A DNA stretch of 64,000 nt from Thermoplasmatales archaeon. Lineage in GTDB: Archaea; Thermoplasmatota; E2; DHVEG-1. Location: contig CP070724.1 of assembly GCA_020350825.1 (NCBI GenBank), forward strand, positions 1,013,584-1,077,583, given 5' to 3'. Below, in pieces: positions 7,242 to 63,139 of this stretch (positions within the stretch are counted from its first letter, which is position 1; every line of letters starts with the position of its first letter). Under the pieces are notes generated by a model that made no database searches, was not told where the DNA came from, and was given only the letters and a program-made list of their open reading frames with translations. A program made the position numbers and the translations under genes.

Positions 7242-9131
7242 TTACTTTAATCCTAATATTTGTCTTAGAATTGGTAAAATCCATGGATGATTTTGTAAAA
7301 ACTGCAAGAACCACCAGTTCTGTGATAGCTGGTTCATTGGCATACTTATCTCAAGATAGCCCCAGTCGCTTTCCTCACCAAGGATATCCTTGGCTTTGGC
7401 TTTAATTTCATATGTTCCTTTTTCATCCCAAGTATGGCTAATAGTCGCTACCACACCAGAGTCATATGGTCCAATCCATCCAGAGTTGCTCTCGTCATCC
7501 CAGTCAACAAAATAATATAATTCAGAACCTTCAGGATCATTTGAAACAATAGAATAAACATAACTTTCACCAGGTTTCCCAAATGCATTGCCCGTTATCA
7601 ACGGAGGCATAGGGGGGAGATTAGGAATGTTACTTCCATGAATTTCAAGACATGGACCAAGAGAGTAGCTATATTCCTTAGTACGGAAAAATGCCTGCGG
7701 AATATCATACCATCCCCAGTAGTTATCATCAGTCACTTTCCAACCACAATTAACTTGAAGATCATCTATGAAATCTTGAACATCCTCAGTAACATCCCAT
7801 TCCACCCACATACCTGTAGATGAAGGAACAGAAGAACCTGCACTCGGTTGGGAAGCATAAGAAGGCTGTGAATTCCATGTTACAGTCTCCTCATACCAAT
7901 TGTTTGTTATTCGATAAAGATTCAAAGCATTACCAGATGGATTATTTGCATACCACATATAATAGTAGAGTTTCAATATTACTAAAGAAATTGTTGCATT
8001 CGTTGGAATTGAAGAAACATCAAATTTGATTAAAACATCAATCTCATAGAAACTACCATCTCCCCCGTATTTGTTTTGAACAATCATATAATCATAATCA
8101 CCACGAGGAAGATCTGGACCAGCAGGTTGATCAATAAAGGTATCATCCGTTGGACATAATGTCAATTTCTGAGGGTATTCAGTTGTGAATTCCCATAACG
8201 GTCCAGATGTCGAAACATTTTGGGTGTCCCAAGCGACTATCTTCCAGTAATATGTTGTCCCATACTCTAGTATTCCAGGATTGTATACCGTATCTGATTG
8301 ATTGCTTACAACCTTTGAAGGAGAAGTAGTAAGTCCAAAATACACGTCATATGTTAGAGGGTCACTATTTGGATCATCACAATCCCAGTTTAGAATGGTA
8401 TCGATGTTAACAAGAATTGCACCATCTTCTGGGTCTGGATCACCTGGCTCAAATGGTGGAAGGTTAGGAAGATTATCCCCTTGGATTTCAAGATATGGTC
8501 TAAAATTGTAACCAAATTCCTTGGTACGGAAAAATGCCTGCGGAATATCATACCATCCCCAGTAATTATCATCTACTATCTTCCAGCCATAAAAATCCTC
8601 CTGTCCACTGATAATATTTTGTACTTCATTTGTTACATCCCATTCCATCCATATACCGGTAGATGATGGAACAGGAGAATTCGCACACGGTTGAGAAGCA
8701 TAAGAGGGTTGGTTATACCACGTTGCTGTTTCTTCATCCCAGCTGCTTATTATCCGATAAAGATTCAAAGGCCTACCTGCAGGGTTATTAGCAAACCAGA
8801 AATAATAATACAGATAAAATCTAGCTGATGAAATAATCGTATTATTAGGAAAAGCAGATATATCAAATTTAACTAAAGCATCGATTTCCCAACCAGGAGT
8901 TGCCCCATATGCGTTTTCAACAATCATATAATCGTAATCACCACGAGGAAGATTTGGTCCAGCAGGTTGATCAATAAAGGTATCATCAATAGTAGTTAAC
9001 GTAATAATATCACTATTTAATTTTTCATTTTTCTTTACATAATCATCTACACTTGATACAACACTTGCTCCAAAAAACAATATTATTATTCCAACTGTTA
9101 CACTTCTCTTTAATATATAATTCTTTTTCAT
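7242..9131 (-). CDS. Secreted protein: signal peptide, two DNRLRE-like beta-sandwich units, Fn3-like domain, PKD-like module and a divergent conserved C-terminal tail
   Basis: Signal-like N-terminus MKKNYILKRSVTVGIIILFFGASVVSSV. Duplicated ...DDTFIDQPAGPxLPRGDYDYMIV...LNLYRI..W.EETxTWxxQPSYASQP. C-terminus ...ESDWGYLEISMPMNQLSQNWWFLQFLQNHPWILPILRQILGLK. Confidence 0.8.
   Translation of the reverse strand: MKKNYILKRSVTVGIIILFFGASVVSSVDDYVKKNEKLNSDIITLTTIDDTFIDQPAGPNLPRGDYDYMIVENAYGATPGWEIDALVKFDISAFPNNTIISSARFYLYYYFWFANNPAGRPLNLYRIISSWDEETATWYNQPSYASQPCANSPVPSSTGIWMEWDVTNEVQNIISGQEDFYGWKIVDDNYWGWYDIPQAFFRTKEFGYNFRPYLEIQGDNLPNLPPFEPGDPDPEDGAILVNIDTILNWDCDDPNSDPLTYDVYFGLTTSPSKVVSNQSDTVYNPGILEYGTTYYWKIVAWDTQNVSTSGPLWEFTTEYPQKLTLCPTDDTFIDQPAGPDLPRGDYDYMIVQNKYGGDGSFYEIDVLIKFDVSSIPTNATISLVILKLYYYMWYANNPSGNALNLYRITNNWYEETVTWNSQPSYASQPSAGSSVPSSTGMWVEWDVTEDVQDFIDDLQVNCGWKVTDDNYWGWYDIPQAFFRTKEYSYSLGPCLEIHGSNIPNLPPMPPLITGNAFGKPGESYVYSIVSNDPEGSELYYFVDWDDESNSGWIGPYDSGVVATISHTWDEKGTYEIKAKAKDILGEESDWGYLEISMPMNQLSQNWWFLQFLQNHPWILPILRQILGLK
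7630..9000 (-). repeat. Internal tandem duplication (period about 840-843 bp) inside CDS 7242..9131
   Basis: Near-identical stretches recur: gtacggaaaaatgcctgcggaatatcataccatccccagta at 7681 and 8524, and ccacgaggaagatYtggWccagcaggttgatcaataaaggtatcatc at 8101 and 8941. Confidence 0.85.
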
Positions 9132-23547: not shown

Positions 23548-26052
23548 ATGAAAAAATCCATAACAATCTTTGTAGCTATAATTATGGTCCTTGGAGGACT
23601 TGGAGCAACTGCCATCAATGTTGATAACACCGAAAATGCGTATACAAAAACCGTCATAAAAACAATAGAGATTGACTTTTCAAAACCAAGCTTTACAGAT
23701 ATCGATAAGAATTACATTAGATTATATCTTGAAGAAGGGGAAACTTACTTGATGAATCCTGGTCAACCAATGATTCCAAAAGTGGTTAAAACATTCGAGC
23801 TTCCCTTTGGAGTAACCAACATAAAGATTAATGCAGAACCATCAGGTATACAAGAACTTAAAATTTCAAAAGAAATAGAACCTGCACCAGCACCACTACC
23901 ACTGACCCCAAGACCAGATTCCATAATTCGATCCAAAAAGGATCAAACAGTGTATAATAGCAATGATATATACCCACATGAGTGGTATGGCTCTCATGTT
24001 GGTTGCGGATTGAATACCGAAGGTGAGCACGTTACTCATCTAACAGTAAATATTTTCCCACTAAGATATAGACCTGAATCAGGGAAAATAATTGTTGCTG
24101 AGAAGGTTAATATAAAAATAACCTATGAAGACCCAGAATTAAATATTTTCCCGCAGACGAGCACCTATGATCTCGTAATTATTACTCCATCAAAATTTTC
24201 AAGTGAACTTGAAAGACTAGTTGAACATAAAAACACATTTGAGATGGAAACCGTTATAAAAACAACAGAAGAGATATATGATAATCCAAACTATAATGGT
24301 AGAGATAAACCTGAGCAAATTAAATATTTCATAAAGGATGCAATAGAAACATGGGGAGTTCAATATGTACTTCTTTTCGGTGGTTTAAAATCTATAATTT
24401 ATGCGAAAGCTAAAGATGATCAAAACCATGGTGCAAAAGGTTGGCATGTCCCCGTAAGATATTCTAATTTTCAGTATGATGGTGATCCAAATTATAACTT
24501 CACTAGCGGTGAACCGAACTACATCAGTGATCTCTACTATGCAGACATCTACAAAGAAGGAGGCGAGTTCGATGATTGGGATTCCAATGGAAACGATATA
24601 TTTGCTGAATGGTCAGGTGAGGTAAGAGACGAGCTTGATCTATATCCTGACGTAGCATTTGGAAGACTCGCTGTAAGGAATAAAAGAGAAGTAAGAGATG
24701 TAATTACAAAAATCATCGACTATGAAAAACTTCCAGCTGACCCAACTTGGTTCAAAAGAATGATCTCGATATCTGGAGATGGATTCCTAGACCAAGAAGA
24801 TTGGGGTATAGAATGGGACACCAATGGTCTAGTAGATGGAGAATATATCATTTGTGCACAAAGCAAAAATCCAGAGGGTGAAAAAGGCCCAGTAGATGAA
24901 ATACATATAACACTGGATAAAACAGTTGAAACTAACATAACTTTTAACCATGATGACCACCTCAAAGAAGAAATACAAGGTTATCTTTATCCAGCACCCC
25001 CTATAGCAGAAATCATGACAATATCAAACGGTAACACCCTTGGGAACACAGACTACACCTACACACCACATGGAGGACAAGCTTACTGCAACGACCTATA
25101 CTGGTATGCAAATATCTCCTATGTAGATGAAGTTCTGACAATTCGTGGGAAATCATATGATCCAAAACCATATGGTAATATAACCCACATTAAAGTGTGG
25201 ATTAATAACAGCAATGAAGAAACGATATTTACAGAATTGAGGAATGATACAGAAACCTACTATGAGGGTGAATGGATTGTCGGAGAAAAATCCCTACTTG
25301 GCAGAGGAGGAGCCCTTGTCTATATTCCTGATGATTTTGAATCAAACAGTGTGTTTACTTCAAATGGTAAATGGTTTGATCAATCTGATGTAATCGAGGA
25401 GTTTAGCAAAGGATATGGTCTTGCTTTTTTCTCAGGACATGGAAGTCCTGGATGGTGGGGAGATCATTACCCTGGGATACCTGGTAACAGACGATATGGC
25501 TCAGTAGCTGGACTTGTGGTTACTCAGTTATCATCCTACTTCCCATTTTTACATTTCCCACTTTTCCCAATGAAGGAATTAACAAATACCAATAAGCTTC
25601 CAGTTGTTAGTGTTGGCGGTTGCCATAACAGTATGTTTAGTGTGTCGTTGATTACTGCAATTTTGGACCGATGGCTTCCTTTATACATGCATACTTATGG
25701 CACACCGGTTCCTGAATGTTGGGGTTGGTTTATGGTAAAGCTTCCAAAAACTGGTGCTATTGCAACAATGGGCAATACTGGATATGGATGGGGATCAGAA
25801 GGTGATGTGTGCACAGTTGGTACTGGTGATGGATGGATAAACACCGAGTTCTTCAGACAATATGGCGAAGAAGATCAGACGATTTTAGGTATGGCGTATA
25901 TTCAGGCAATAACCAGTTATGTATCCCATCATAAGACATTTGAAATTGAGTATTGGCGTCATGACTATGGATGGGATGGAATTGATGAGAAGACTGTAGA
26001 GCAATGGCAACTATTAGGTGATCCAAGTCTCCAAATAGGTGGATACTCCTAA
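23548..26052 (+). CDS. Secreted gingipain-like cysteine peptidase (MEROPS C25 / clan CD)
   Basis: Signal peptide. Propeptide-like N-domain (MNPGQPMIPKVVKTFELP). YDLVIITPSKF...GRDKPEQIKYFIKDAIETWGVQYVLLFGG. Catalytic His FFSGHGSPGWWGDH and Cys VVSVGGCHNSMF. Confidence 0.8.
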   Translation: MKKSITIFVAIIMVLGGLGATAINVDNTENAYTKTVIKTIEIDFSKPSFTDIDKNYIRLYLEEGETYLMNPGQPMIPKVVKTFELPFGVTNIKINAEPSGIQELKISKEIEPAPAPLPLTPRPDSIIRSKKDQTVYNSNDIYPHEWYGSHVGCGLNTEGEHVTHLTVNIFPLRYRPESGKIIVAEKVNIKITYEDPELNIFPQTSTYDLVIITPSKFSSELERLVEHKNTFEMETVIKTTEEIYDNPNYNGRDKPEQIKYFIKDAIETWGVQYVLLFGGLKSIIYAKAKDDQNHGAKGWHVPVRYSNFQYDGDPNYNFTSGEPNYISDLYYADIYKEGGEFDDWDSNGNDIFAEWSGEVRDELDLYPDVAFGRLAVRNKREVRDVITKIIDYEKLPADPTWFKRMISISGDGFLDQEDWGIEWDTNGLVDGEYIICAQSKNPEGEKGPVDEIHITLDKTVETNITFNHDDHLKEEIQGYLYPAPPIAEIMTISNGNTLGNTDYTYTPHGGQAYCNDLYWYANISYVDEVLTIRGKSYDPKPYGNITHIKVWINNSNEETIFTELRNDTETYYEGEWIVGEKSLLGRGGALVYIPDDFESNSVFTSNGKWFDQSDVIEEFSKGYGLAFFSGHGSPGWWGDHYPGIPGNRRYGSVAGLVVTQLSSYFPFLHFPLFPMKELTNTNKLPVVSVGGCHNSMFSVSLITAILDRWLPLYMHTYGTPVPECWGWFMVKLPKTGAIATMGNTGYGWGSEGDVCTVGTGDGWINTEFFRQYGEEDQTILGMAYIQAITSYVSHHKTFEIEYWRHDYGWDGIDEKTVEQWQLLGDPSLQIGGYS

Positions 26053-32991: not shown

Positions 32992-35193
32992 ATGGAAAAT
33001 AAAAAGATAAAAAATAACTTTGTATTAGCTATGATTTTAATATTAGTTCTTTCAACAGTATCTTCATTTTCTGTGGGTAAGGTTTTACAGCAAAAAAATT
33101 ATGATAATAATAATTTAATTAATCTTAACAGAGGTGTAACTTTTGTTTCTAAATCATCAGGACTTGAAGTTCCAGCAAAAGAAGGAGGAGATACCGAGTT
33201 GGAGCTTGCCGATATCAACAATGATGGACATTTAGATATTATCTGTGTTGGTGATCATGGTTCTCCATATATTAATAGTAATCAACATGGGATTATGGTA
33301 TGGCTAGGTGATGGAGAGGGTACATGGTCTGTTATTCAAGTTGGAAATTTCGGTTATGGCGGTATTGAAGCAGGGGATCTTAACCTGGATGGCTACCTTG
33401 ATGTAGTCTGGGGGATACATCATGATTATAGTTCCACTCCTGGTTTTGGTGATACTTTAATTGGTGCTGCTTTGGGAGATGGTACTGGCTCGAATTGGAT
33501 TCCCTGGGCAACAGGGCTTGGTACTGGAGGTGAAGATTACGGTATGTTTTCAACTGATCTTGCTGATTTTGATTGTAATGGTCTACTTGATATTATTTCT
33601 CTATCATTTGGTTGTTGCAATGGTTATCACCAGTATGAAAATCATGGAGATGGAACTTGGAGTCATACTTGGGATTTATCAGGGGGGAATGCTAGAAATA
33701 ATCTTGAAACAGGTGACTTCAACGCTGATGGATATCCTGATTTTGCTGGACTTCGTGAGAATACCTATGTTTTCCTTGGAGATGGTTCTTTTGGTTTTAC
33801 TATGAATCAAAATGGTCTTCCAGCAGGATACTATTACGGTATTGATTGTGGAGATATGAATAAAGATGGATGTGATGATTTAGTCATTGGTATTGGGTCT
33901 TCTGGAGTACGTTGTTACAAGTTTGATAAACAAAATGATGAATGGGTTTCAGTATCCAGTGGTCTACCAACCGCTGGAACCTATGAGGTACAATTTGGAG
34001 ATATTGATGGGGATAGTTTTCTTGATATTCTTGCTTATAGTGCTCCCACAGGTTATGCATATCTAGGAGATGGAAATGGGAACTGGATGCTTGATGGTAC
34101 ATTTACTATGTCTAGTCCTGGTTATTATTCTGCACTCACTGTTGATGGTGATTTTGACCATGATGGTCGCGAAGATGTTTTAATACAAGCCGAGCAGGGT
34201 AGTTGGCCCTCATATCAAAATATATTAAAGGCTTATTCTCCATGGCTTGAACCAACGGCACTTACTGCTCAAGTGTCAATCCCTCATGGGGGAGAAACGT
34301 TTAGAAGCGGGTCTATTCGTAATATTCGTTGGCTTTCTGCTGTTCCACCATCACAAGATGATGCTAATGTTGAAATTCAGGTATCTCTAGATGGCGAATC
34401 AGGTCCATGGGATACAATTGCATCTGACATTCCAAATAATGGCTGCTTTCAATGGTTAGTTGATGTAGGTGGATCTGAACATTGTAGGATTAAGATTATT
34501 GTTTCTACATCATCTGGGAATATATCTGCTATATCAGCATCTGATTTTACAATTATAGGTTTTAATGTAGACGCACATGGTCCTTATCAGGGATATATAG
34601 GTGAATCTGTGCAATTTAATGGCTCAGCAGAAAATGGAACACCTCCCTATGATTTTCTTTGGGATTTTGGAGATGGTAATACATCTGTTTTGCAGAACCC
34701 AACTCATATTTATAATGACGCTGGGAATTTTACAGTTACTTTAACTGTTACTGATGATGATGGTATAACTGTTCGTGATTCAACTTGGGCTTTTATTCGA
34801 GGAGATAACAACCCTCCAAGTTCATCAGGAATAACTGGTCCAACTAGTGGCCAAGCAGGTGTAGAATATACCTATTGTGTAATCAATGTTATAGATCCAG
34901 ATGGAGATGATATTTGGGCTAACTTTAGTTGGGGAGATGGTAGTTACAGCGGGTGGATAGGCCCCAACGCTTCTGGAGAGGACATATGTGCATCGCATGC
35001 TTGGGAAAGAGGAAATTATAAAATTAAGGTAAAACTCAAGGATGAATGGGGATTGGAAAGCGATTGGTCAGATCCATTCCCAATCACGATGCCTAAAAAC
35101 AAACTCCAAATTTTTAACTTTTCAATGCTTAGTTGGCTATTTGAACGATTTCCAAATCCATTCCCGATACTACGACATATGCTAAGATTATAA
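32992..35193 (+). CDS. Secreted FG-GAP/VCBS beta-propeller protein with PKD domain and conserved C-terminal cassette
   Basis: Signal peptide. Repeated DINNDGHLDI / DLNLDGYLDV / DFNADGYPDF / DIDGDSFLDI motifs. Classical PKD (WDFGDGNTS...HIYNDAGNFTVTLTVTDDDG). C-terminus ...MPKNKLQIFNFSMLSWLFERFPNPFPILRHMLRL. Confidence 0.85.
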   Translation: MENKKIKNNFVLAMILILVLSTVSSFSVGKVLQQKNYDNNNLINLNRGVTFVSKSSGLEVPAKEGGDTELELADINNDGHLDIICVGDHGSPYINSNQHGIMVWLGDGEGTWSVIQVGNFGYGGIEAGDLNLDGYLDVVWGIHHDYSSTPGFGDTLIGAALGDGTGSNWIPWATGLGTGGEDYGMFSTDLADFDCNGLLDIISLSFGCCNGYHQYENHGDGTWSHTWDLSGGNARNNLETGDFNADGYPDFAGLRENTYVFLGDGSFGFTMNQNGLPAGYYYGIDCGDMNKDGCDDLVIGIGSSGVRCYKFDKQNDEWVSVSSGLPTAGTYEVQFGDIDGDSFLDILAYSAPTGYAYLGDGNGNWMLDGTFTMSSPGYYSALTVDGDFDHDGREDVLIQAEQGSWPSYQNILKAYSPWLEPTALTAQVSIPHGGETFRSGSIRNIRWLSAVPPSQDDANVEIQVSLDGESGPWDTIASDIPNNGCFQWLVDVGGSEHCRIKIIVSTSSGNISAISASDFTIIGFNVDAHGPYQGYIGESVQFNGSAENGTPPYDFLWDFGDGNTSVLQNPTHIYNDAGNFTVTLTVTDDDGITVRDSTWAFIRGDNNPPSSSGITGPTSGQAGVEYTYCVINVIDPDGDDIWANFSWGDGSYSGWIGPNASGEDICASHAWERGNYKIKVKLKDEWGLESDWSDPFPITMPKNKLQIFNFSMLSWLFERFPNPFPILRHMLRL

Positions 35194-39825: not shown

Positions 39826-39861
39826 TAAAAATTCAAAAAATTCAGACGTTATTTTTCCCCC

Positions 39862-40605
39862 TTATTCTTCTCCATATAACGTGGCAATCTTCCCTAAAAA
39901 TTCTTTGGTTCTTGCTTTTTTTGGATTACGAAACATTTGTTTTGGCGGACCACTTTCTACAATTATCCCATTCTCCATAAAGATGATCTCATCTGCAACA
40001 TTTCTAGCAAATCCCATCTCGTGAGTAACCACTAACATACTAACCTTTCCTGCAAGTCCTTTCATAACTTCAAGTACCTCTCCAATAAGTTCTGGATCTA
40101 GAGCCGAAGTAGGTTCATCAAATAATATTATGACAGGGTCCATTGCTAAAGCTCTTGCAATTCCCACACGTTGTTTCTGCCCTCCCGATAGTTGAGCAGG
40201 ATATTGATTTGCCTGTTCTACCAAACCCACTCTTCCCAGCTCTTTTAAAGCTCGTTTTTTTGCGTCCTCTTTTTTTATCCCTCGTACCTTCTCCAACCCA
40301 ATACTTATATTTCTAATTGCAGTTAGATGATTAAAAAGATTAAAATCCTGGAAAACAAATCCGATTTTTTGACGTATTCTATTTATGTTCTTAGATAAAT
40401 GGGAGATCTCTTCACCTTCGAGAAAAACTTCCCCCTTATCCGGAGGATCTAATTGATTGATACACCGAAGAAGTGTACTTTTTCCAGTTCCACTTGTTCC
40501 AATAATTACTTTTGTCTTACCTTTATCCATATTAAAAGATATTCCTTTTAAGACCTCGAGTTGACCAAATGACTTATGAATATCTTTTACTTCGAGCATA
40601 TGCAT
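39862..40605 (-). CDS. Polar amino-acid ABC transporter ATP-binding protein
   Basis: Walker A GTSGTGKST, signature LSGGQKQRV, Walker B ILFDEPTSALD. Confidence 0.92.
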   Translation of the reverse strand: MHMLEVKDIHKSFGQLEVLKGISFNMDKGKTKVIIGTSGTGKSTLLRCINQLDPPDKGEVFLEGEEISHLSKNINRIRQKIGFVFQDFNLFNHLTAIRNISIGLEKVRGIKKEDAKKRALKELGRVGLVEQANQYPAQLSGGQKQRVGIARALAMDPVIILFDEPTSALDPELIGEVLEVMKGLAGKVSMLVVTHEMGFARNVADEIIFMENGIIVESGPPKQMFRNPKKARTKEFLGKIATLYGEE

Positions 40606-40625
40606 ATTTTTACCTTCTTAATTTC

Positions 40626-41300
40626 TTATTTAACAGTTCCAATCTCAGTACCTGATATTTTGTATTTTTTTTCAAGATAGCTTAAACCTTTATTGATGGA
40701 AATAACTATTATTAAGTAAATTAGAGCAATAAGCAATAATATAGGAAGAACTAATTCGTAGTTCAACGAATAAATATATCCTCCTTGTCTCATCAACTCG
40801 ATAACACCGATGCTAAAAGCAATAGAAGTATCTTTGAGAACAATTGTCAGTTCATTAGACCATCCAGGAATAGAAAGCCTCAAGACTTGAGGAATAATAA
40901 TATATCGCAAGGCTTTTAGTTTTGACATCCCTATTGATAATGCTGATATCATTTGTCCATCAGGTATTGAATTTATTGCACTGCGATAAATCTGAGCTTG
41001 ATACGCAGCGCTTCTCAATCCTAGTCCTAGGACTGCTGATGAGAATGGGTCGAGGTTAAGGCCAATTTGAGAAAGTCCAAAGTATATTATAAAGAGCATC
41101 ACAAGAAGTGGGATCCCTCTAAAAACTTTCTCATAAATAATAATACAATAGACAAGAGGCCATTTCCCATAAGAACGACCCATTGCCAATCCTATTCCAA
41201 ACACAGACCCAAGTATCAGGCTTAATAAAGTTAGACTGATTGTTATTACCAAACCATCCATCAGCTGAGGTAGAGAATCTGTCAAAATCTCTAATGCCAA
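40626..41300 (-). CDS. Polar amino-acid ABC transporter permease (second subunit)
   Basis: VFRGIPLLVMLFIIYFGL and ISALSIGMSKLKALRYIILPQ. Confidence 0.85.
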   Translation of the reverse strand: MALEILTDSLPQLMDGLVITISLTLLSLILGSVFGIGLAMGRSYGKWPLVYCIIIYEKVFRGIPLLVMLFIIYFGLSQIGLNLDPFSSAVLGLGLRSAAYQAQIYRSAINSIPDGQMISALSIGMSKLKALRYIIIPQVLRLSIPGWSNELTIVLKDTSIAFSIGVIELMRQGGYIYSLNYELVLPILLLIALIYLIIVISINKGLSYLEKKYKISGTEIGTVK

Positions 41301-41322: not shown

Positions 41323-42099
41323 TTATTCAAAGTATTTTTTAATTAGATTTGTCCATTCTTCAGTTCCTATTAGTTTAGTAAGTCCTTGATTTAATTCCGC
41401 AAGTAAATCACTATTTCCTTTTTTTACTGCAAGTCCATACTCCTCATCCGAGTCAATTGTATATGCAATTTCCGCATCGACATCCTCTGCAAATGCTTCT
41501 GCAACCGGTTTATCGATAACTATTGCATCTAAATTTTTATTTGTTAAATCTAAAAGAGCTAATGTATAGAGCGTGTATCGTTTGAGCTGATCTTCCTGCA
41601 TAGTCGCATTAGTTATATTAATTAAGGTTTCATATACCCAGTCCGCTCCTGTAGTTCCTGTTTGAGCACCAACTGTAAGATTAGCAAGTACTTCAAGATG
41701 ATTAGTCTCATTAATTGTATAGTTTGATTCAGTCAACACTAATACTGATAGGTCAGCTTCATAATATGGAATTGTGAAATCTACCTCTCTTTCTGGATCT
41801 ATTGACATCCCAGCAGCTATAACATCTATTTTATCAGAGTTCAACGCACCTATTAAACCTTCAAAAGCTATGTCTTGAACTTCCACTGTATAATTCAGGT
41901 CCTCAAGAATCATTGTTACCATTTCAATATCAAATCCTACAATGGTTCCATCTTCCACATATTCAAACGGTGGAAAATCAGCCGATGTACCAACTATTAT
42001 TTTATTTTCAATTTCTTCTACACATCCTGATAACGAAATACCAAGTCCTACTACTGCTATTATCACTAACATCGAAAATATTTTCTTTTGTTTGTTCAT
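41323..42099 (-). CDS. Amino-acid ABC substrate-binding lipoprotein
   Basis: Signal plus LSGC lipobox, then the type-3 SBP pattern IIVGTSADFPPFEY...GFDIEM...DVIAAGMSI. Confidence 0.85.
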   Translation of the reverse strand: MNKQKKIFSMLVIIAVVGLGISLSGCVEEIENKIIVGTSADFPPFEYVEDGTIVGFDIEMVTMILEDLNYTVEVQDIAFEGLIGALNSDKIDVIAAGMSIDPEREVDFTIPYYEADLSVLVLTESNYTINETNHLEVLANLTVGAQTGTTGADWVYETLINITNATMQEDQLKRYTLYTLALLDLTNKNLDAIVIDKPVAEAFAEDVDAEIAYTIDSDEEYGLAVKKGNSDLLAELNQGLTKLIGTEEWTNLIKKYFE

Positions 42100-42251: not shown

Positions 42252-44141
42252 CTATCCTCCAACTTTAAGGCTTGGATCTCCGAATAACTGCCATTGCTGT
42301 ACCATTTTGGGATCCATTTCATCGCGGCTGCATAGAAACGTATGTAGGTAATCCTTTATCGCTCCGCTATGTAAATCTCCGAGAATGTCTACTTTTTCTT
42401 GGTTATATAGTTGGAAGAATCTTAGCTCAAGCCATCCATCTAGTACTTCAAGATAGTCGTTTATATTATTTTGATCTGCATCGCTCATGGCATGTGTCCC
42501 CAGTCCTGTGTTGGCTATGGTTGCTATTGCTCCTCCTCCTTTTTTACTGGTTAATTTCCATGCCCAACAGCTAGCCGGTGCAAGTTTTATTTTCCCTCTT
42601 TTAAGACTATTACCTATTGACAAGTCAAACTTTCCGTTGAAACATCCTCCTACTACTGTTATCGGGAGTTTGTTTTTATTCCTCAGAAAATTCATATACA
42701 TTGTGTGGTAGAAGGTGATTAATCCTAATCTGCTGAGTGATGGCCCCCATCCGGTGGCATCAGGTGGGTAATGTATTCCCCAACTAGTTGCTGAGCCGTG
42801 TCCACAGAAATATGCAAATCCTGCTCCTTTGTTTATGGCTTTGTTTATATTTCTAACTAATAATTTATTTCCCTCAGTGGCATATAATTTTATAGGGGTA
42901 AAACCTGACATTATTTCTGATGCTTCTTCCATTATTAGTACGCCTTCACTTATCTGACCCGGGTCTTTCCAGTGGTCACCTGATACAAGTATCATTTTTT
43001 TGAACCAATCATCATCGGCCTTTTTTTTCTCGTAGTCAATTATTTTATCTACTACGATTCTTACTTCACGTTTATTTCTACATGGTAGACGACCAAGGTA
43101 GACGTCTGGGTATAGGTCCATTTTGTCTATTTCTTTTGATCCGTCCCATTCTGCAAAAATATTGTTGTCGTTGGTATCCCAGCAGGAGAAATTCCCTTCA
43201 CTGTCATAAATATCTGCGAAGTATAGATCGCAGATGAACTTTGGTTCTGGTACTTCTTGTTTACCTTCTGAAATTAGGACATGGCTATATCTAGTTGGCA
43301 GGTTCCATTTTGTTGTTTGACCTTTAATACCACCTACTAATAGAACATATTCGATTCCCCAGTTTTCGATTGATTCTTTGATATAGTATTTCATCTTTTC
43401 TTGTGTATCTCTACCATTTGTGTCTTGGATTTCATTTAATGTTACAAGTTTGGTTTTAATACCCATATTTTCTTTATGGTTTACAAGTCGTTGTAAAGGC
43501 CTTTTAAAATTTGAAACAGTGATGATTAATAGATCATATTCATCTTTATTTTCTAATAATGGGTAGTCAGGTTGTTCAAAGGTAATTGTAACCTTAGCTT
43601 GTTCAATAAAATCTATTTCATAATCTGTTGGTCTGTATGTTATAGGGTTAACTCTAACTGTTAGGAATGTTTTTTGTGTGCCGTTAGATAAACCTCCACC
43701 AGTGTGGTAAGATATAAAATTAGGTGGAAACCTTGTATCTTCGTCATAAATATTTGGGTCTTCACCTGTAGCGGTGGAACATGAGCCAACTGAGATTTTT
43801 TTCGTAAGAGTTATTGCTTCAGGTTCTGAGTATTCATAGATAACATCTAATATTTTTGTTCTAAAAGGGAACTCATATGTTGTGGTTTTTACAGGTATTG
43901 CAGGCCATCCATCGTGCATATCGTAAAAATCTGCTTCATCTACATAAACACAGGTATATTCTTCAAAATCAGAAAAGGTAGGATAAGAAAATGTGTATCT
44001 TTGTATTATTTTTTCACCTTGAATATTTAAATATTGACCTATGTTGTCTTCGGTATCCTTATCTTTATCTTCGTAAATTATAAAGACTGCTGCGCATGCA
44101 ATTAATACAAAAGCCACAACTATTGCAAGGACATTTTTCAT
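42252..44141 (-). CDS. Secreted gingipain-like cysteine peptidase (C25 / clan CD), shorter paralog
   Basis: YDLLIITVSNF...GRDTQEKMKYYIKESIENWGIEYVLLVGG. His YFCGHGSATSWGIHY, Cys ITVVGGCFNGKF. C-terminus QWQLFGDPSLKVGG parallels QWQLLGDPSLQIGG of 23548..26052. Confidence 0.8.
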   Translation of the reverse strand: MKNVLAIVVAFVLIACAAVFIIYEDKDKDTEDNIGQYLNIQGEKIIQRYTFSYPTFSDFEEYTCVYVDEADFYDMHDGWPAIPVKTTTYEFPFRTKILDVIYEYSEPEAITLTKKISVGSCSTATGEDPNIYDEDTRFPPNFISYHTGGGLSNGTQKTFLTVRVNPITYRPTDYEIDFIEQAKVTITFEQPDYPLLENKDEYDLLIITVSNFKRPLQRLVNHKENMGIKTKLVTLNEIQDTNGRDTQEKMKYYIKESIENWGIEYVLLVGGIKGQTTKWNLPTRYSHVLISEGKQEVPEPKFICDLYFADIYDSEGNFSCWDTNDNNIFAEWDGSKEIDKMDLYPDVYLGRLPCRNKREVRIVVDKIIDYEKKKADDDWFKKMILVSGDHWKDPGQISEGVLIMEEASEIMSGFTPIKLYATEGNKLLVRNINKAINKGAGFAYFCGHGSATSWGIHYPPDATGWGPSLSRLGLITFYHTMYMNFLRNKNKLPITVVGGCFNGKFDLSIGNSLKRGKIKLAPASCWAWKLTSKKGGGAIATIANTGLGTHAMSDADQNNINDYLEVLDGWLELRFFQLYNQEKVDILGDLHSGAIKDYLHTFLCSRDEMDPKMVQQWQLFGDPSLKVGG

Positions 44142-47457: not shown

Positions 47458-49098
47458 CTAGTAATTTTTCTTCTTTTTCATTAATAGAACAATTAAGACA
47501 GCTATTAACATTACAATTATTTCAAAACCTGGTGTAGAATCATCTTCTTTTACCTCATCTTCGTTATCAGATTTTGTTTCAACCTCGGTTTGATCACCTT
47601 CTTCAGGTTCTTTTTCTTCTTCCTCAGGTTCCTCTTCAATAATTTCTAAACCAATATAATTGACAATTTCCTCGTAACTTAAAGTTTCCATTATCATATT
47701 TTGCTTATCTATTGTTAGATAAAGCTTCATTGTTTTTGATTCCCATAACTCAGGAGAAAAAAAGTAATTGATTGTGTGATTACCTAAAAGACTAAGTGCT
47801 TGTTCTTCTGTAACATTTTCCTTAAAAATAATTATGACTTCTTCGCTGTTTTGTTTCTTTTCGTCATCTAGCCCACCAAAAGCATATAATTTATGGTTAT
47901 TACCACCTACATATATAGTTCCGTCAGCCCCAATTGCTGGAGAACTTGAAAAGGAAGATGCCTTAAGCCTCCATTTTTCAGTTCCATCTGGACTTAGTGC
48001 ATAGAAATTTCCACTACCTGCCCCAAAATATATTGTCCCGTCAGATCCTATTGCAGCAGAGGTACTAATTGCTTCTAACGAAGGAGGTGTTTCAAAATGC
48101 CATATTTCTTCACCTTCCGGTGTGAGTGCATAGAATGTTGCATCCCATGACCCTACATATATTGTTCCATCTGCACCAATTGCAGGTATTGCACTTACTC
48201 CATCATTTGTTTGATAGCGCCAAATTACATTTCCATTTGCAGGGTTAAGTGCATGAACGTATCCTTTTTTTGAACCGATATAGATTGTCCCATCAGATCC
48301 TACAGATGGGGAAGACTCTTGCCAAAGATTTGTTTTGAATTTCCATTTTATAGCTCCATTTGTTGGATTAAAAGCAAATGTATAACTGAGTTCACCTTGG
48401 CCTGCTCCACCAGCTGCATAAACTGTTCCATCATGTCCAACTGCAGGAGATGCAGGCATTCCTGATGATCCGCTATTAAACTTCCATTTTAAGCTTCCAT
48501 CTGGATTAATTGCATATAATATTCCTTCATACTGAATATTTGTAGTTTCTCCTGGGGGGTACTGTTGAGAACCCACATATATTGTTCCATCAGGGCCAAT
48601 TACAGGTGAGGACCATACGTCTACATATACATGTACAGGATAGCGCCATTTTTCAATCCCATCTGAGTTAAGCGCATACAAATAATTTGAAAACGAGGTA
48701 AAGTAAATAGTACCATCACTTGCAATTGCTGGTGAGGAAAGTATTGCTTTTTCAGTTTCATAACCTTGCATATCTATAATTGGAAAGGGTTCACCTGCAT
48801 TAAACTTCCATTTAAGTGTTCCATTTGGATTTATTGCGTAGAATTTGTTTTTATGATCACCAAAGTAAATTGTTCCATTTTCACCAATTGCAGGAGAGGT
48901 TTCAATTGGACCATCTGATTCAAAAGTCCATAAAATGGTTCCGTCTACATGGCTAGTATTATATGGGCTTAAACCACCATGTTGTGCACTGCCATGAATC
49001 ATTGGCCATGGGGATTCAGCTAACTGAGCATTAACACAATTTAAGCTTAAAATTGAAACTGTGATAAAAACAAGTATCATTATGATTATTTTTTTCAT
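47458..49098 (-). CDS. Secreted PQQ-like beta-propeller repeat protein with PGF-CTERM anchor signal
   Basis: Repeated GTIYxGS...LYAxNPxGxxKWxF blades, then an acidic linker. C-terminus TPGFEIIVMLIAVLIVLLMKKKKNY (PGF, then a TM helix, then a basic tail). Confidence 0.8.
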   Translation of the reverse strand: MKKIIIMILVFITVSILSLNCVNAQLAESPWPMIHGSAQHGGLSPYNTSHVDGTILWTFESDGPIETSPAIGENGTIYFGDHKNKFYAINPNGTLKWKFNAGEPFPIIDMQGYETEKAILSSPAIASDGTIYFTSFSNYLYALNSDGIEKWRYPVHVYVDVWSSPVIGPDGTIYVGSQQYPPGETTNIQYEGILYAINPDGSLKWKFNSGSSGMPASPAVGHDGTVYAAGGAGQGELSYTFAFNPTNGAIKWKFKTNLWQESSPSVGSDGTIYIGSKKGYVHALNPANGNVIWRYQTNDGVSAIPAIGADGTIYVGSWDATFYALTPEGEEIWHFETPPSLEAISTSAAIGSDGTIYFGAGSGNFYALSPDGTEKWRLKASSFSSSPAIGADGTIYVGGNNHKLYAFGGLDDEKKQNSEEVIIIFKENVTEEQALSLLGNHTINYFFSPELWESKTMKLYLTIDKQNMIMETLSYEEIVNYIGLEIIEEEPEEEEKEPEEGDQTEVETKSDNEDEVKEDDSTPGFEIIVMLIAVLIVLLMKKKKNY

Positions 49099-58723: not shown

Positions 58724-58770
58724 TCGTTTTTAAGTTGTTTTTAATTTGTTTTTAAGTCATGATTTTATAT
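58724..58770 (+). promoter_or_regulatory. Phased T5A2 repeat promoter, copy B (3 units plus TATA box)
   Basis: tcgtttttaag ttgtttttaat ttgtttttaag tcatgaTTTTATAT. T5 tracts at 58727, 58738 and 58749. GGAGGT at 58806, ATG at 58819. Confidence 0.6.
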
Positions 58771-58818: not shown

Positions 58819-60066
58819 ATGAAAAATAATTTAGTTATAAAGGCTGTTATTTGCGGAATTGTAATAATAATTAGTAGTGCAAGTTTTATATCAACGGTCA
58901 TATCAGACGAAACCAGGATAACATCCTTTGTATCCTCAATGAAAGCTACTTGGATAGTTGATGACGAGGGCGATGGAGACTTTACTACTATTCAAGATGC
59001 AATAAATAATTCTCAATCTGGGGATACCATTGAAGTTTACAGTGGAACATATGTTGAACATGTGAATATTAGTAAAACCATTACACTCCTTGGGAAAGAC
59101 GTAGAACTTGGAAGTGGAAGTGACACAGGCATTCCAATCATCGACGGAAGTAATACTGACGATATAGTTAATATAACAGCCAATGGAGTGACAGTTAATA
59201 AGTTTAAAATTAGAAATGGTGGAATCGATGGCGCAGCAATTAAATTACGATCAAGTGCTAACAGTTACATATATAGCAATATACTCATAGACAGCGATGA
59301 TGGAGTAAGACTTAGAGAATCTAGTGATAACAACTACGTCTACCAGAACACGATAATTAACAATGACGACGGTATCGATATTAGAGATTCAAACAACAAC
59401 CATATCTATGAAAACAACATTGAGAACAACGATGATGGAATCGATATAAGAGATTCAAGCACAAACAATCATATATTTCATAACAACTTTATGAACAATA
59501 ATGACAATGCGTTCGATGAAGCAACCAATATGTGGGATGACGGATATCCATCTGGTGGAAATTACTGGGATGATTATACTGGATCTGATGGTGATGGTGA
59601 TGGCATTGGAGATACCCCATATAATATCCCTGGTGGTAGTAACCAAGACAACTATCCACTAATGAATCCATGGCAAGATGATAACAATCCTCCAAGTATA
59701 CCAGATATCAACGGAACTATTAATGGAAAAGTTGGGACAGAGTATGAATACACCTTCGTGTCGACGGATCCTGATGGCGATGATGTCTTTTATTGTATTA
59801 TATGGGGTGATGAAACACCTGAAGTATGTATTGGACCATTTAATTCAGGTGATACGGCAACTGCTAAACATATATGGTCAGAAGAGGGAATGTATACTGT
59901 CTCGGTTAGAGCAAAGGATATCCATGATGCTGAGGGTGACTGGGGCACGCTTGAGGTAACCATGCCTAAGAATAAAGCATTCAATTTCAACTTTAATCTG
60001 ATGGGTTGGTTGTTTGAACGGTTTCCAAATGCATTCCCAATACTACGATACATGCTAGAGCTATAA
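58819..60066 (+). CDS. Secreted right-handed parallel beta-helix (PbH1/NosD-like) protein with conserved C-terminal cassette
   Basis: Signal MKNNLVIKAVICGIVIIISSASF. WIVDDEGDGDFTTIQDAINNSQSGDTIEVYSGTY followed by NNDDGIDIRDS repeats. C-terminus ...MPKNKAFNFNFNLMGWLFERFPNAFPILRYMLEL. The track start at 58759 lies inside promoter copy B, so 58819 is preferred. Confidence 0.85.
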   Translation: MKNNLVIKAVICGIVIIISSASFISTVISDETRITSFVSSMKATWIVDDEGDGDFTTIQDAINNSQSGDTIEVYSGTYVEHVNISKTITLLGKDVELGSGSDTGIPIIDGSNTDDIVNITANGVTVNKFKIRNGGIDGAAIKLRSSANSYIYSNILIDSDDGVRLRESSDNNYVYQNTIINNDDGIDIRDSNNNHIYENNIENNDDGIDIRDSSTNNHIFHNNFMNNNDNAFDEATNMWDDGYPSGGNYWDDYTGSDGDGDGIGDTPYNIPGGSNQDNYPLMNPWQDDNNPPSIPDINGTINGKVGTEYEYTFVSTDPDGDDVFYCIIWGDETPEVCIGPFNSGDTATAKHIWSEEGMYTVSVRAKDIHDAEGDWGTLEVTMPKNKAFNFNFNLMGWLFERFPNAFPILRYMLEL

Positions 60067-60196
60067 AAACTAACTAAACCAACCTCCAACAATATTTGGT
60101 TTTGTTACAGATGTTGCAATAAATATAAAAGAAAAGATATTTAAATAAAAAAATTATATCAAACACAGGAGAATGAAATTTATTAGAGGGAAAAAT

Positions 60197-63139
60197 ATGA
60201 AAAATATTAGAATTGGAATTGTAGTGTGTATGCTGTTGATAACATCTTTTTCAATTTCGACTACAGCTATAGTAAATATAAAGGAATCATACAGTAGTAT
60301 TAATTTAAGCTCACATGTGAGTGAAATATTACTAACTGATTGGTATTTACAAACATCTTGGGATACCAGTGGCCTGTTTGGATTTTATTTTTCAAGTAAT
60401 GATGTAGGATGGGCAGTAGGAGTAGGAACCATACTTCATACTTCTGATGGTGGAAATATTTGGTTTGAGCAGGATTATCCCGCGGCTAGTAATTTATATA
60501 GCGTATTTTTCATAAACAATTACATAGGTTGGACTTCTGGTTCTAATGGCGTTATTTTACATACTACAGATGGTGGAAATACATGGGTGGAACAAGACCA
60601 TAGCTTTACTAATGGAGGTTATTTCTTTAGTGGCCTATATTTCTTAGATGCCAATAATGGTTGGGCTGTTGGTGGTAAACCGTATACTTATAACTCTCCT
60701 AATAAACGTGTAATATTGCATACAACTGATGGTGGAGATACCTGGGTAACAAATCTATATGAATCATATACCAGTCGTCTTTTAGCAGTCTATTTTACTG
60801 ATACCAATAATGGTTGGGCAGTAGGTGAGTATGATCAATATAGTGGTCATGTTTTACATACTAGTAATGGTGGAGCTACGTGGGTGGTTCAGGATCCTGG
60901 AGTAACATCACATTTAACTGATGTTCATTTTACAGATTCAAATAATGGCTGGATAATTGGAGGTTTCGGACTTTTACTACATACAACTAATGGTGGAGAT
61001 ACTTGGACATCTGAAGACCCTGGAACTTCCGATAGTTTATCTGGTATTCATTTCATTGATGGTCAAAATGGATGGATCGCAGGTGGCAACAATAATGATG
61101 CTACCATAATGCATACCAATGATGGCGGTGGTACTTGGACTGCTGATAATCCTGGAACAACTAATTTTTTGTATGATATTTTTTTAACTGATTCTACTCA
61201 TGGTTGGGCTGGCGGTATTCATGGTGACATTGTCTCTACAATACAAACAAGTAATACTCCTCCTGATCAGCCGTTTGATCCGATTCCATCTGATGGAGAG
61301 ACAAATGTTAATCTTGACCCTACATTGTCTGTTAAAGTTACAGATCCAAATTCAGATACGTTGACTGTAAGTTTCTATGATGCTTCAGATAATAGTTTAA
61401 TCGGCACAGATAACAATGTAGTAAGTGGAGATAGAGCATATATCATATGGAATGATCTTGAGTCTTCAACTACTTATAATTGGTACGTAGTTGCAGATGA
61501 TGGTGAAGATTCCACTCAATCACCTACATGGAGTTTTACAACAACTGGTGCAAACCAACCTCCTAATGAACCAACAAATCCCATGCCTCCAAATGGTGCA
61601 ACAGATGTCGAATTAAATCCGACGTTATGTGTCAAATTAACTGATCCTAATATTGACTCTATGACTGGACGTTTTTATGATGCAAGTGATAATAGCTTAA
61701 TTGGAATTGATTATGGGGTTCCTAGCGGTGATATGGCATATGTCACATGGTCCGGTCTTTCTCCTGAAACAACATATAGCTGGTACTCTAAAGCTGATGA
61801 TGGTGAGTATATAACCCAGTCTAATACCTGGTCATTTACCACATGTTGTGCAAACCAGCCTCCTAATTCACCAATATTTCCTATACCTTCAGATGGTGCT
61901 ACTGGAGTTGGTCTTAATCCTCCCCTTTCGGTTGAAGTAAATGATCCTGATGCTGATTCCATGACTGTACGTTTTTATGATGCAAGTGATAATAGCTTAA
62001 TTGGAATGGACGATGGAGTTACAAGTGGTAATAGAGCTATTGTTATTTGGCCTAATCTTTCACCTTCCGTGACCTATAGTTGGTATGCAGTTGCAGATGA
62101 TGGTGAATATACTAATCAGTCTGATATCTGGGAATTTACAACTGATTCAGTAAATAATGCTCCGCTAGCACCAACAAATCCATTACCTTCAGATGGTGCT
62201 ACTGGAGTTGGTCTGAATCCTACCCTTTCGGTTGAAGTAAATGATCCTGATGCGGACTCTATGACTGTTCGTTTCTATGATGCAAGCGATGATAGCTTAA
62301 TTGGAATGGACGATGATGTTATTAGTGGTGGAAGAGCTTATACTCCTTGGAATGGTCTGTCACCTTCTACCTCATATGATTGGTATGCAGTTGCAGATGA
62401 TGGTGAATATACTACTCAGTCTGATACCTGGTCATTTACTACTGGTGCAGAAAATAATGCTCCTTTAGAACCAACAAATCCTATACCTTTAAATGATGCC
62501 ACTGGAGTTGATCTTAATTCTACTCTTTCGGTTGAAGTAAACGATCCTGATGCTGATTCCATGACTGTTCGTTTCTATGATGCAAGGGATGACAGCTTAA
62601 TTGGAACTGACTTTAATGTTCCTAGTGGAAGCAGAGCTTATATGGGATGGTTTAACCTTGAACCATTGAGCATGTACAGTTGGTATGCAGTTGCAGATGA
62701 TGGAGAGTATACTACTCAGTCTGATACTTGGAGTTTTGTAACCATTCAGGATCCTGATAATAACCCGCCGAGTACACCAACTATATTAGGTCCAGAACGT
62801 GGAAAACCTGGTATAGAATATACCTATACATTCAATTCAGTAGATCCAGATGGGGATGACATAGTATATTGTATACAATGGGGTGATGATACCGAAATAT
62901 GTCTTGGCCCTTATCCATCTGGGGAAGATGTAGTCGCGACTCATATTTATGAAGAAAAAGGAGGGTATACTATCAGAGCAAAAGCGGAAGACTCAAATGA
63001 GGCAGAAAGCGACTGGGGAACACTCAAAATCGAAATGCCAAAAAATAAAGCATTTAAATTCAACTTTCCTCTCCTTAATTGGCTATTTGAACGATTTCCA
63101 AACACCTTCCCATTACTCAGGTACCTTCTAGGACTATAA
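60197..63139 (+). CDS. Secreted BNR/Ycf48-like beta-propeller protein with five Fn3-like repeats and conserved C-terminal cassette
   Basis: Six HT(S/T/N)(D/N)GGxTW blades, five 100-aa repeats, and C-terminus ...MPKNKAFKFNFPLLNWLFERFPNTFPLLRYLLGL. The ORF is open from 60173, but the Met at 60197 gives a normal signal peptide (MKNIRIGIVVCMLLITSFSISTTA) and RBS spacing. Confidence 0.85.
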   Translation: MKNIRIGIVVCMLLITSFSISTTAIVNIKESYSSINLSSHVSEILLTDWYLQTSWDTSGLFGFYFSSNDVGWAVGVGTILHTSDGGNIWFEQDYPAASNLYSVFFINNYIGWTSGSNGVILHTTDGGNTWVEQDHSFTNGGYFFSGLYFLDANNGWAVGGKPYTYNSPNKRVILHTTDGGDTWVTNLYESYTSRLLAVYFTDTNNGWAVGEYDQYSGHVLHTSNGGATWVVQDPGVTSHLTDVHFTDSNNGWIIGGFGLLLHTTNGGDTWTSEDPGTSDSLSGIHFIDGQNGWIAGGNNNDATIMHTNDGGGTWTADNPGTTNFLYDIFLTDSTHGWAGGIHGDIVSTIQTSNTPPDQPFDPIPSDGETNVNLDPTLSVKVTDPNSDTLTVSFYDASDNSLIGTDNNVVSGDRAYIIWNDLESSTTYNWYVVADDGEDSTQSPTWSFTTTGANQPPNEPTNPMPPNGATDVELNPTLCVKLTDPNIDSMTGRFYDASDNSLIGIDYGVPSGDMAYVTWSGLSPETTYSWYSKADDGEYITQSNTWSFTTCCANQPPNSPIFPIPSDGATGVGLNPPLSVEVNDPDADSMTVRFYDASDNSLIGMDDGVTSGNRAIVIWPNLSPSVTYSWYAVADDGEYTNQSDIWEFTTDSVNNAPLAPTNPLPSDGATGVGLNPTLSVEVNDPDADSMTVRFYDASDDSLIGMDDDVISGGRAYTPWNGLSPSTSYDWYAVADDGEYTTQSDTWSFTTGAENNAPLEPTNPIPLNDATGVDLNSTLSVEVNDPDADSMTVRFYDARDDSLIGTDFNVPSGSRAYMGWFNLEPLSMYSWYAVADDGEYTTQSDTWSFVTIQDPDNNPPSTPTILGPERGKPGIEYTYTFNSVDPDGDDIVYCIQWGDDTEICLGPYPSGEDVVATHIYEEKGGYTIRAKAEDSNEAESDWGTLKIEMPKNKAFKFNFPLLNWLFERFPNTFPLLRYLLGL
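61253..62752 (+). repeat. Five in-frame tandem repeats, exact 300-bp period, inside CDS 60197..63139
   Basis: tgcaagtgataatagcttaattggaat... recurs at 61681, 61981, 62281 and 62581, with a diverged copy at 61381. Copies 3-5 are the most similar to each other. Confidence 0.9.

Follow-up and report, generated by a model that had tools for sequence, protein, structure and literature searches.

A conserved hinge-and-hairpin tail ends diverse secreted proteins of Thermoplasmatota archaea and is a candidate surface-retention module

Four secreted proteins encoded in a 64,000-nucleotide stretch of archaeal DNA (contig CP070724.1, positions 1,013,584 to 1,077,583; hereafter the window), which is part of a 2.32-Mb contig from a 'Thermoplasmatales archaeon' metagenome-assembled genome (MAG), carry unrelated cargo domains and share their final ~34 residues. 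We tentatively favor the reading that this C-terminal tail is an autonomous, uncleaved module that would hold its host protein on the cell surface non-covalently. The tail recurs at the extreme C-terminus of many other proteins of this broad lineage and is not a transmembrane (TM) segment.

An initial annotation of the window had pointed to four open reading frames (ORFs) with a shared ending. All four are present and end as it quoted, and a six-frame scan of the window finds the M-P-x-N hinge followed by the tail at exactly these four sites. One start needs correction: position 60197, given for the second ORF, is an internal ATG, and the ORF begins at 60173. The genes lie as follows, together with the parts of what we call the cassette, which consists of a proline-rich linker (N-x-P-P), a PKD-like module of ~90 residues, an invariant proline, and the tail; the module boundaries in Genes 2 to 4 come from cassette alignments.

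58819..60066, plus strand: Gene 1 (UCF13722.1, 415 aa), with signal peptide, NosD-like right-handed beta-helix, PKD-like module, and tail; its longest ORF begins at 58759
59683..59961, plus strand: Gene 1 proline-rich linker (NNPPS) and cassette-type PKD-like beta-sandwich (AlphaFold2 (AF2) predicted local distance difference test (pLDDT) 96-98; 53% identity to PDB 4XED)
59962..60063, plus strand: Gene 1 tail, with MPKNK hinge, predicted helix FNLMGWLFER, FPN turn, predicted helix AFPILRYMLE, and a last L before the stop
60173..63139, plus strand: Gene 2, with signal peptide, BNR/Ycf48-like propeller, five Ig/Fn3-like repeats, PKD-like module, and tail
62759..63034, plus strand: Gene 2 linker and cassette-type PKD-like module
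63035..63136, plus strand: Gene 2 tail, MPKNKAFKFNFPLLNWLFERFPNTFPLLRYLLGL and then the stop
32992..35193, plus strand: Gene 3 (UCF13700.1), with signal peptide, FG-GAP/VCBS propeller, classical PKD domain, cassette-type PKD-like module, and tail
34807..35088, plus strand: Gene 3 linker and cassette-type PKD-like module
35089..35190, plus strand: Gene 3 tail, MPKNKLQIFNFSMLSWLFERFPNPFPILRHMLRL and then the stop
7242..9131, minus strand: Gene 4 (UCF13675.1), with signal peptide, two DNRLRE/CBM96 units, PKD-like module, and tail
7344..7622, minus strand: Gene 4 linker and cassette-type PKD-like module
7245..7343, minus strand: Gene 4 tail, of an 'ENHP/QNHP' subfamily, MPMNQLSQNWWFLQFLQNHPWILPILRQILGLK and then the stop

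Searches against Pfam and NCBIfam bore out the proposal that the cargoes are unrelated: a NosD/beta-helix, a BNR/Ycf48-like propeller with five Ig/Fn3-like repeats, an FG-GAP propeller with a PKD domain, and a pair of DNRLRE/CBM96 units. Each of the four proteins has, again as proposed, a single basic and hydrophobic N-terminal segment that resembles a signal peptide, and no C-terminal TM segment was detected in any of them. NCBI's own annotation names these proteins after their cargo domains only; a sorting-domain name is absent from it. The tail subfamily of Gene 4 recurs in P0085, L052, L074, L078, and L080. Within Gene 2 (60173-63139, plus strand), residues ~355-860 make up five consecutive Ig/Fn3-like repeats of ~95 residues, and the near-identity of their cores (DPDADSMTVRFYDASDDSLIGMD) suggests a recent internal duplication.

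Restriction to four paralogs would have made the tail a family feature, and a profile scan showed a far wider distribution. We scored a tail-only profile of 34 positions against all 1.84 billion protein representatives (50%-identity clusters) and found 1,233 protein clusters at E<=1e-3 and 89 at E<=1e-10; the similarity of the tails is far beyond chance. The hosts are 33 to 1,212 residues long, and in nearly all of the best 150 the match reaches the extreme C-terminus. A profile of the whole cassette matched 729 proteins in a word-indexed database, where the named hosts are Thermoplasmata/Thermoplasmatales MAGs and the C-termini are strikingly similar. Among contigs from one genome per species, 278 stretches encode a relative; the best 80 of these come from ~30 assemblies, whose labels in nearly every case read Thermoplasmatota, Thermoplasmata, or Thermoplasmatales (host taxonomy here is the label on the MAG record). 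The closed chromosome CP070798.1 holds at least 11 of the loci and one MAG at least 25. The hosts include MAG M9B1D (L028, L048), which is treated as belonging to Thermoprofundales (MBG-D, for Marine Benthic Group D) in PMC6461988. No cassette relative was found on viral contigs. Cassette genes of Thermoplasmatota type also sit on very short contigs of MAGs from other phyla (L043, Heimdallarchaeota, 3.2 kb; L073, Altiarchaeota, 2.8 kb; L056, Methanobacteriota, 2.1 kb), and these occurrences may be binning errors.

We then turned to the retrieved loci themselves. A hidden Markov model (HMM) of the tail, run over their 702 kb, identified 97 tail ORFs, of which 90 end within three residues of the stop, in line with the terminal position first described. 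Eighteen loci hold two to five tail ORFs, often in tandem. Of 83 complete host proteins, 69 have a signal-peptide-like N-terminus. Internal tails are rare and arise through gene fusion or read-through (P0121, P0235, P0158, L078_936, L058_4636): P0121 (693 aa) has one internal and one terminal tail, and the internal copy in L078:936-2495 has decayed (FPNALPIFKYFLVV). The loci also encode divergent, shorter tails with a single F-P unit instead of F-P-x-x-F-P, of the form [LF]xxRFP[IL][LF]xx[IL]Lxx[IL] (L048:2-418 and 2921-3691, L055:3272-4603, L059:4642-6021, L061:5758-6375, L019:5125-6396, L042:1603-3426, L071:343-2178). The count of 1,233 clusters probably understates the size of the tail superfamily.

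The consensus of 277 distinct tails defines two parts. The hinge reads M(86%)-P(100%)-x-[N 62%/S 31%]-x and is followed by ~8 variable residues; the form MPKNK that had been proposed holds in general as [M]-P-x-[N/S]-x but not to the letter, as Gene 4 has MPMNQ. The helical part reads, with percentages in brackets, L-L-x-W-L-F-E(81)-R(79)-F(88)-P(98)-[N/H]-A-F(98)-P(96)-I-L(90)-R(94)-x-L-L-x-G(72)-[L/Y]. In ~73% of tails the stop codon falls exactly two residues past R-x-L-L, and the terminal residue is hydrophobic in most. The two helices resemble two copies of one unit, F-x-L-L-x-x-L-F-E-R and F-P-I-L-R-x-L-L-G-L.

Structure prediction separates the tail from the domain before it. Alignments of the four window cassettes and then of 86 relatives define the four cassette parts named above; with the 86-row alignment, AF2 models the PKD-like module plus tail as a confident beta-sandwich (pLDDT 96-98), a lower-confidence linker (95-103), and two helices (104-113 and 117-126, pLDDT 67-80). 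When the tail is modelled behind a second Ig-like module, the same two helices are again predicted (98-106 and 108-118), and the linker falls below pLDDT 50. The tail is thus predicted to be a flexible hinge followed by an aromatic, amphipathic helix-Pro-helix hairpin. The subterminal module is a PKD beta-sandwich by both fold and profile, with Pfam PKD/PKD_4 matches that range from weak to significant. Its best Foldseek match is PDB 4XED (E = 2e-12, TM-score 0.94 normalized to the target, 53% identity, root-mean-square deviation 1.1 Å), the PKD domain of an M14-like peptidase from Thermoplasmatales archaeon SCGC AB-540-F20, and thus the same cassette-type module from the same broad lineage. 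The cassette profile matches 4XED at E = 1e-37 and also matches the PKD domains of ColH. The 4XED protein, to date the sole solved structure of a cassette-type PKD module, was crystallized without a tail; its construct stops exactly at the module boundary, ...TLEVTMPK, indicating that the tail lies outside the folded PKD domain and was removed before the structure was solved.

The hairpin is also found without the PKD-like module. Tails follow a second, unrelated Ig-like sandwich ending in ...IDVSLATPKNK, which has no significant PDB match (L002, L006, L036, L066, P0197, P0216, P0226, P0233, P0246, P0257); they also stand directly after the end of a subtilase (P0149), directly after a NosD beta-helix (P0238), and after propeller repeats in the fused protein P0121. 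The P-x-N-K hinge accompanies the tail in every non-PKD context seen, and cassette-type PKD modules occur internally without a tail. The initial annotation took PKD, hinge, and tail together as one invariant cassette; a conserved C-terminal module stands, but the invariant, separable unit is the tail alone. We rejected the idea that the tail is an integral part of the PKD domain, given that 4XED ends at MPK, that non-PKD contexts exist, and that the linker is predicted to be flexible. The range of cargo is broad: 90 long tail proteins contain 44 Pfam families, among them NosD/beta-helix domains, PQQ, FG-GAP, and Kelch propellers, laminin-G, CBM96, arylsulfotransferase, metallophosphoesterase, and cadherin-like domains. 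There is also a conserved cargo-less family of ~150 residues, with a signal peptide, a PKD-like module, a tail, and nothing else.

These contexts bear on the possibility that the tail acts within its own protein, as a cap or folding aid for the preceding beta-sandwich or as a degradation or maturation tag, leaving localization unaffected. Substrates of tail-specific proteases have a hydrophobic terminal residue, as most tails do, and the tail usually follows one specific PKD subtype. However, the structure of that PKD module was determined in isolation, with a construct that stops at ...MPK; modules of this type exist internally without a tail; and at least four other, unrelated kinds of domain precede the tail, across a linker predicted to be flexible. 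We regard a purely intramolecular role as highly improbable.

Sequence divergence argues that the tail is maintained for a function. Between cassettes, synonymous differences are saturated in both the tail and the PKD regions (median proportion of synonymous differences, pS, 0.72-0.73), and the proportion of nonsynonymous differences (pN) is lower in the tail core, at 0.235, than in the PKD module, at 0.363; for three of the window paralogs, pN is 0.14-0.19 in the tail and 0.30-0.41 in the PKD module. Saturated pS combined with low tail pN indicates that the copies are old and that the tail sequence is held more tightly than a folded domain. The tail is under purifying selection. Recent gene conversion was rejected on the same grounds. 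Tail genes are multi-copy and often tandem, which is what one would see if the tail were a functionless relic of paralog expansion or of recent domain shuffling. Yet its core is more conserved than the folded domain at saturated pS, it occurs in at least 30 species-level genomes and 1,233 50%-identity clusters, and its non-terminal copies have decayed; the relic explanation is effectively refuted, and we give it almost no weight.

As had been proposed, the tail also lacks the physical character of a TM anchor. Its maximum Kyte-Doolittle hydropathy over 19 residues is 0.35-0.65, compared to 2.5-3.4 for the helix of a PGF-CTERM protein in the window (2.53), a signal peptide, and the N-terminal anchor of a C25 peptidase. 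This low hydropathy, together with the lack of a detectable C-terminal TM segment, rules out a TM anchor. The Wimley-White interfacial energy is favorable (-4.3 to -6.5 kcal/mol), the hydrophobic moment of both predicted helices is moderate (0.45-0.53), and aromatic residues make up 21% of the 277 tails, whose mean net charge is +2; the aromatic, amphipathic character first noticed by eye is borne out, and this chemistry fits interfacial binding. A basic cluster at the C-terminus, taken as two or more K/R among the final five residues, occurs in none of the 277.

We compared the four tails, and the whole proteins, with the sorting-signal models of NCBIfam release 20 and Pfam, and obtained zero sorting-signal matches at E<=10, consistent with the earlier view that the tail falls outside described signals. 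This holds for PGF-CTERM (TIGR04126 / PF18204), whose signature motif, TM helix, and basic C-terminal cluster the tails all lack, as well as for PEP-CTERM, LPXTG, GlyGly-CTERM, MYXO-CTERM, and the other NCBIfam sorting models. The models of the T9SS (type IX secretion system) C-terminal domain (CTD) in both databases gave no match either; the terminal element here is a predicted two-helix hairpin, and the beta-sandwich is subterminal. Dockerin likewise had no Pfam match in tails or whole proteins. A protein in the window served as positive control:

47458..49098, minus strand: PGF-CTERM protein with PQQ-like propeller, outside the module, ending in PGF, a TM helix, and KKKK

In the same searches, this protein matched PGF_CTERM, Loki-CTERM, Heimdall-CTERM, and PF18204, in agreement with its first description as a bona fide PGF-CTERM protein; this genome thus has a second C-terminal system alongside the tail. 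Although the genome is labelled Thermoplasmatales, the protein's best scores are with the Heimdall-CTERM and Loki-CTERM models, which are short and evidently cross-match PGF-type tails outside Asgard archaea. We found no description of the tail or its motif in the literature searched.

Archaeal anchoring routes are listed in PMC12462473. A substrate-binding protein in the window (41323-42099, minus strand), beside ABC-transporter-like genes (39157-41300, minus strand), has a lipobox-like signal peptide (...LSGC), so that a lipobox protein, a PGF-CTERM protein, and the new tail occur together within 64 kb. With these two present, the tail is a candidate third mode in the window and would be a further mode beside the listed routes.

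How might the tail retain proteins? On the reading we tentatively favor, the proteins would be exported by Sec through their N-terminal signal peptides and, once released, would bind the cell envelope non-covalently through the C-terminal module, which would stay uncleaved and keep them on the cell. The hairpin could lie in the head-group or interface region of the outer face of the membrane, as in the penicillin-binding protein PBP5, or dock on a conserved envelope component, or both. The Ig-like module, usually the specific PKD subtype, together with the flexible hinge of ~10 residues would form a stalk that holds the cargo, such as proteases, propellers, beta-helices, and lectin-like domains, away from the surface. 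The hairpin also seems to be read by a protein partner, to judge by the near-invariant F-P-x-x-F-P-I-L-R, the conserved E/R pair, and the fixed end-point.

Several observations weigh against retention of this kind, at least in its simplest form. The conservation of the tail (P 98%, F 98%, P 96%, R 94%, E/R ~80%) goes well past what lipid binding alone would need, and the end-point is fixed in ~73% of tails; such a pattern speaks for a protein, whether receptor or enzyme, that recognizes the tail, and membrane partitioning by itself probably does not account for everything. AF2 confidence in the hairpin is only moderate. With its conserved P-x-[N/S] upstream of a hydrophobic part, the tail bears a loose resemblance in layout to processed sorting signals. 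Finally, the gene neighborhoods we examined contain no candidate receptor or enzyme: all-versus-all clustering of 549 neighboring ORFs in 80 loci revealed no conserved partner gene, and the neighborhoods of the cargo-less family hold just more tail genes, C25/C11 peptidases, and unrelated genes.

The main rival reading is a cleaved sorting signal. In this alternative, an enzyme or receptor would recognize the tail, cut at or near the P-x-N hinge, and join the new C-terminus covalently to a lipid, glycan, or envelope polymer, with the logic of PorU and the T9SS CTD, or of archaeosortase and PGF-CTERM without the TM helix; candidate enzymes would be the clan-CD peptidases of families C25, C11, and C13, which are abundant in these genomes. 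PorU offers a precedent, as this C25-family sortase removes a non-TM C-terminal domain (PMC4560394, PMC8545088). The initial annotation had cast the two C25-like peptidases of the window in this role:

23548..26052, plus strand: C25 peptidase with signal peptide, propeptide, and catalytic domain, without tail, ending ...GDPSLQIGGYS
42252..44141, minus strand: C25 peptidase with N-terminal hydrophobic anchor or signal, without tail, ending ...GDPSLKVGG

The presence of two C25 genes without a tail counts in favor, and position-specific conservation over ~20 residues with a fixed end-point again suggests protein recognition. Outside PKD contexts, too, the invariant Pro and its N/S at +2 accompany the tail, and 80% of tails have an Asn no more than five residues from the Pro. 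Tail-less clan-CD peptidase genes adjoin cargo-less cassette genes in three of five neighborhoods (L044:5896-8538, C25; L081:1652-5931, C11; L082:249-7327, C25). On the other side, the tail lacks a TM helix that would keep a precursor at a membrane enzyme, a basic C-terminal cluster is found in 0/277, and no one residue is universal as P1 in the hinge (Asn 80%, Lys/Arg 66%); all this tells against the sortase-type signal originally suggested. Processed signals usually conserve three to five residues, whereas here the whole hairpin is conserved. These organisms have, as far as is known, a single membrane, and no second translocation step would need a signal.

The C25 peptidases themselves proved to be frequent cargo. 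Twelve of the 25 members of the C25 cluster in the retrieved loci carry the tail, and all seven tail-bearing C25 proteins tested consist of propeptide, C25 catalytic domain, PKD, and tail, the junction between C25 and cassette being directly visible in P0092; gingipain-like peptidases are thus a prominent cargo. No result here assigns them the processing of tails. Strictly, being cargo is compatible with a PorU-like role. Peptidase genes are dense in these loci, and their adjacency to cassette genes may be chance. We consider cleavage of the tail possible but doubtful. A more specific version, in which the tail is the address label of a TM-free sorting system particular to Thermoplasmatota, and a receptor or clan-CD (C25/C11/C13-type) transpeptidase reads the hairpin and the free C-terminus, cuts the P-x-N hinge, and fixes the cargo to the envelope, seems to us unlikely.

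A further alternative is that the tails assemble proteins with one another: hairpins might pair, for example in a four-helix bundle, or bind the PKD modules of their neighbors to build multi-enzyme surface complexes or a coat, with the cargo-less proteins as structural subunits. The conserved cargo-less PKD-plus-tail family would suit such a role, as would the near-identical hairpin on dozens of proteins per genome, the tandem arrays of tail genes, and the tandem-repeat look of two amphipathic helices with a heptad-like F/L pattern. Self-association by itself, however, leaves retention on the cell unexplained, and the moderate confidence of the monomer model fits many states. We think assembly improbable.

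If surface retention is correct, the tail would be a candidate fourth mode of anchoring on the archaeal surface, besides TM segments, lipobox lipoproteins, and archaeosortase substrates. It marks a large part of the secretome of these archaea, at dozens of copies per genome and with C25 peptidases as a major cargo, and it fills an annotation gap, as PGAP, Pfam, and NCBIfam hold no model for it. The tail HMM or regular expression offers a simple sequence marker for proteins that would be surface-retained in these lineages, and FPNAFPILR, a tryptic fragment common to tails, is a directly testable peptide. MBG-D/Thermoprofundales and related Thermoplasmatota rank with the most abundant archaea of sediments, and they are presumed to live by breaking down protein outside the cell with gingipain-like (C25) and clostripain-like peptidases (PMC6461988); the tail bears on how such exo-enzymes are retained. 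Were the address-label version true, the system would organize the whole extracellular degradome of abundant marine-sediment archaea, gingipain-like peptidases included.

A Thermoprofundales metatranscriptome contains 'PKD domain-containing' proteins with very high transcription that are assigned to MEROPS M09B, a collagenase family (PMC6461988); given that the cassette PKD profile matches the PKD domains of collagenase ColH, cassette proteins may be among these 'M09B peptidases', having been placed there on nothing but PKD similarity. A second recurrent ending in the lineage, ...LI.GFG.T.V.VTAE.PE.SD.R.Q.G.V(F/L)LFFIKV.PGG at the stop, is absent from the window and occurs on otherwise different secreted proteins (L007:6909-9515, L024:2-1135, L054:350-1936, L066:3-797, L077:3065-4495, and L082:3523-5562 on the minus strand); it has the look of the final strands in a further conserved C-terminal module. 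The window also encodes two adjacent secreted paralogs (36467-37651 and 37849-38931, both plus strand) with 37% identity, an EWWYF motif in both, and a shared ...RFR ending; Pfam gave zero matches for either.

Among known systems, the dockerin-cohesin pair and the SLH and CWB modules share the logic of the tail, in that one conserved terminal module, conserved as a whole, serves retention or assembly of many extracellular enzymes. A dockerin, however, is a Ca-binding duplicated F-hand of ~70 residues with no relation to the tail in sequence or fold. The T9SS CTD is likewise a non-TM C-terminal element on varied cargo, with C25 peptidases prominent and an Ig-like beta-sandwich at or near the C-terminus; in Bacteroidota, though, the CTD is itself the terminal sandwich, of ~80 residues, and serves translocation across the outer membrane, whereas the archaeal tail is a predicted two-helix hairpin after a sandwich and matches no CTD model. 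PGF-CTERM with archaeosortase A, PEP-CTERM, LPXTG, and GlyGly-CTERM are also C-terminal elements found in many copies per genome on diverse surface proteins with signal peptides. Unlike these tripartite signals, the tail has no combination of tripeptide, TM helix, and basic cluster, gives no HMM match, and is conserved over ~20 residues instead of three to five.

The best mechanistic analogue is the anchor of PBP5: once this protein has been exported, a C-terminal amphipathic helix of 18 residues tethers it to the cytoplasmic membrane's outer face (PMC2909392). Like PBP5, PBP6, and DacD of E. coli (PMC2909392, PMC1564421), the tail proteins have an N-terminal signal peptide and a short amphipathic element, here two predicted helices, at the extreme C-terminus, with no TM segment or lipid modification. 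Points of difference are the second helix of the tail, its invariant turn with a Pro, and its conserved hinge motif. PBP anchors belong to single families and show little conservation. The tail, by comparison, is a portable module with near-domain-level conservation on hundreds of unrelated proteins, and its membrane binding is putative. As a kind of feature, conserved C-terminal modules that retain or sort diverse secreted cargo are already known; this one has no model, and its architecture is unlike the classes described.

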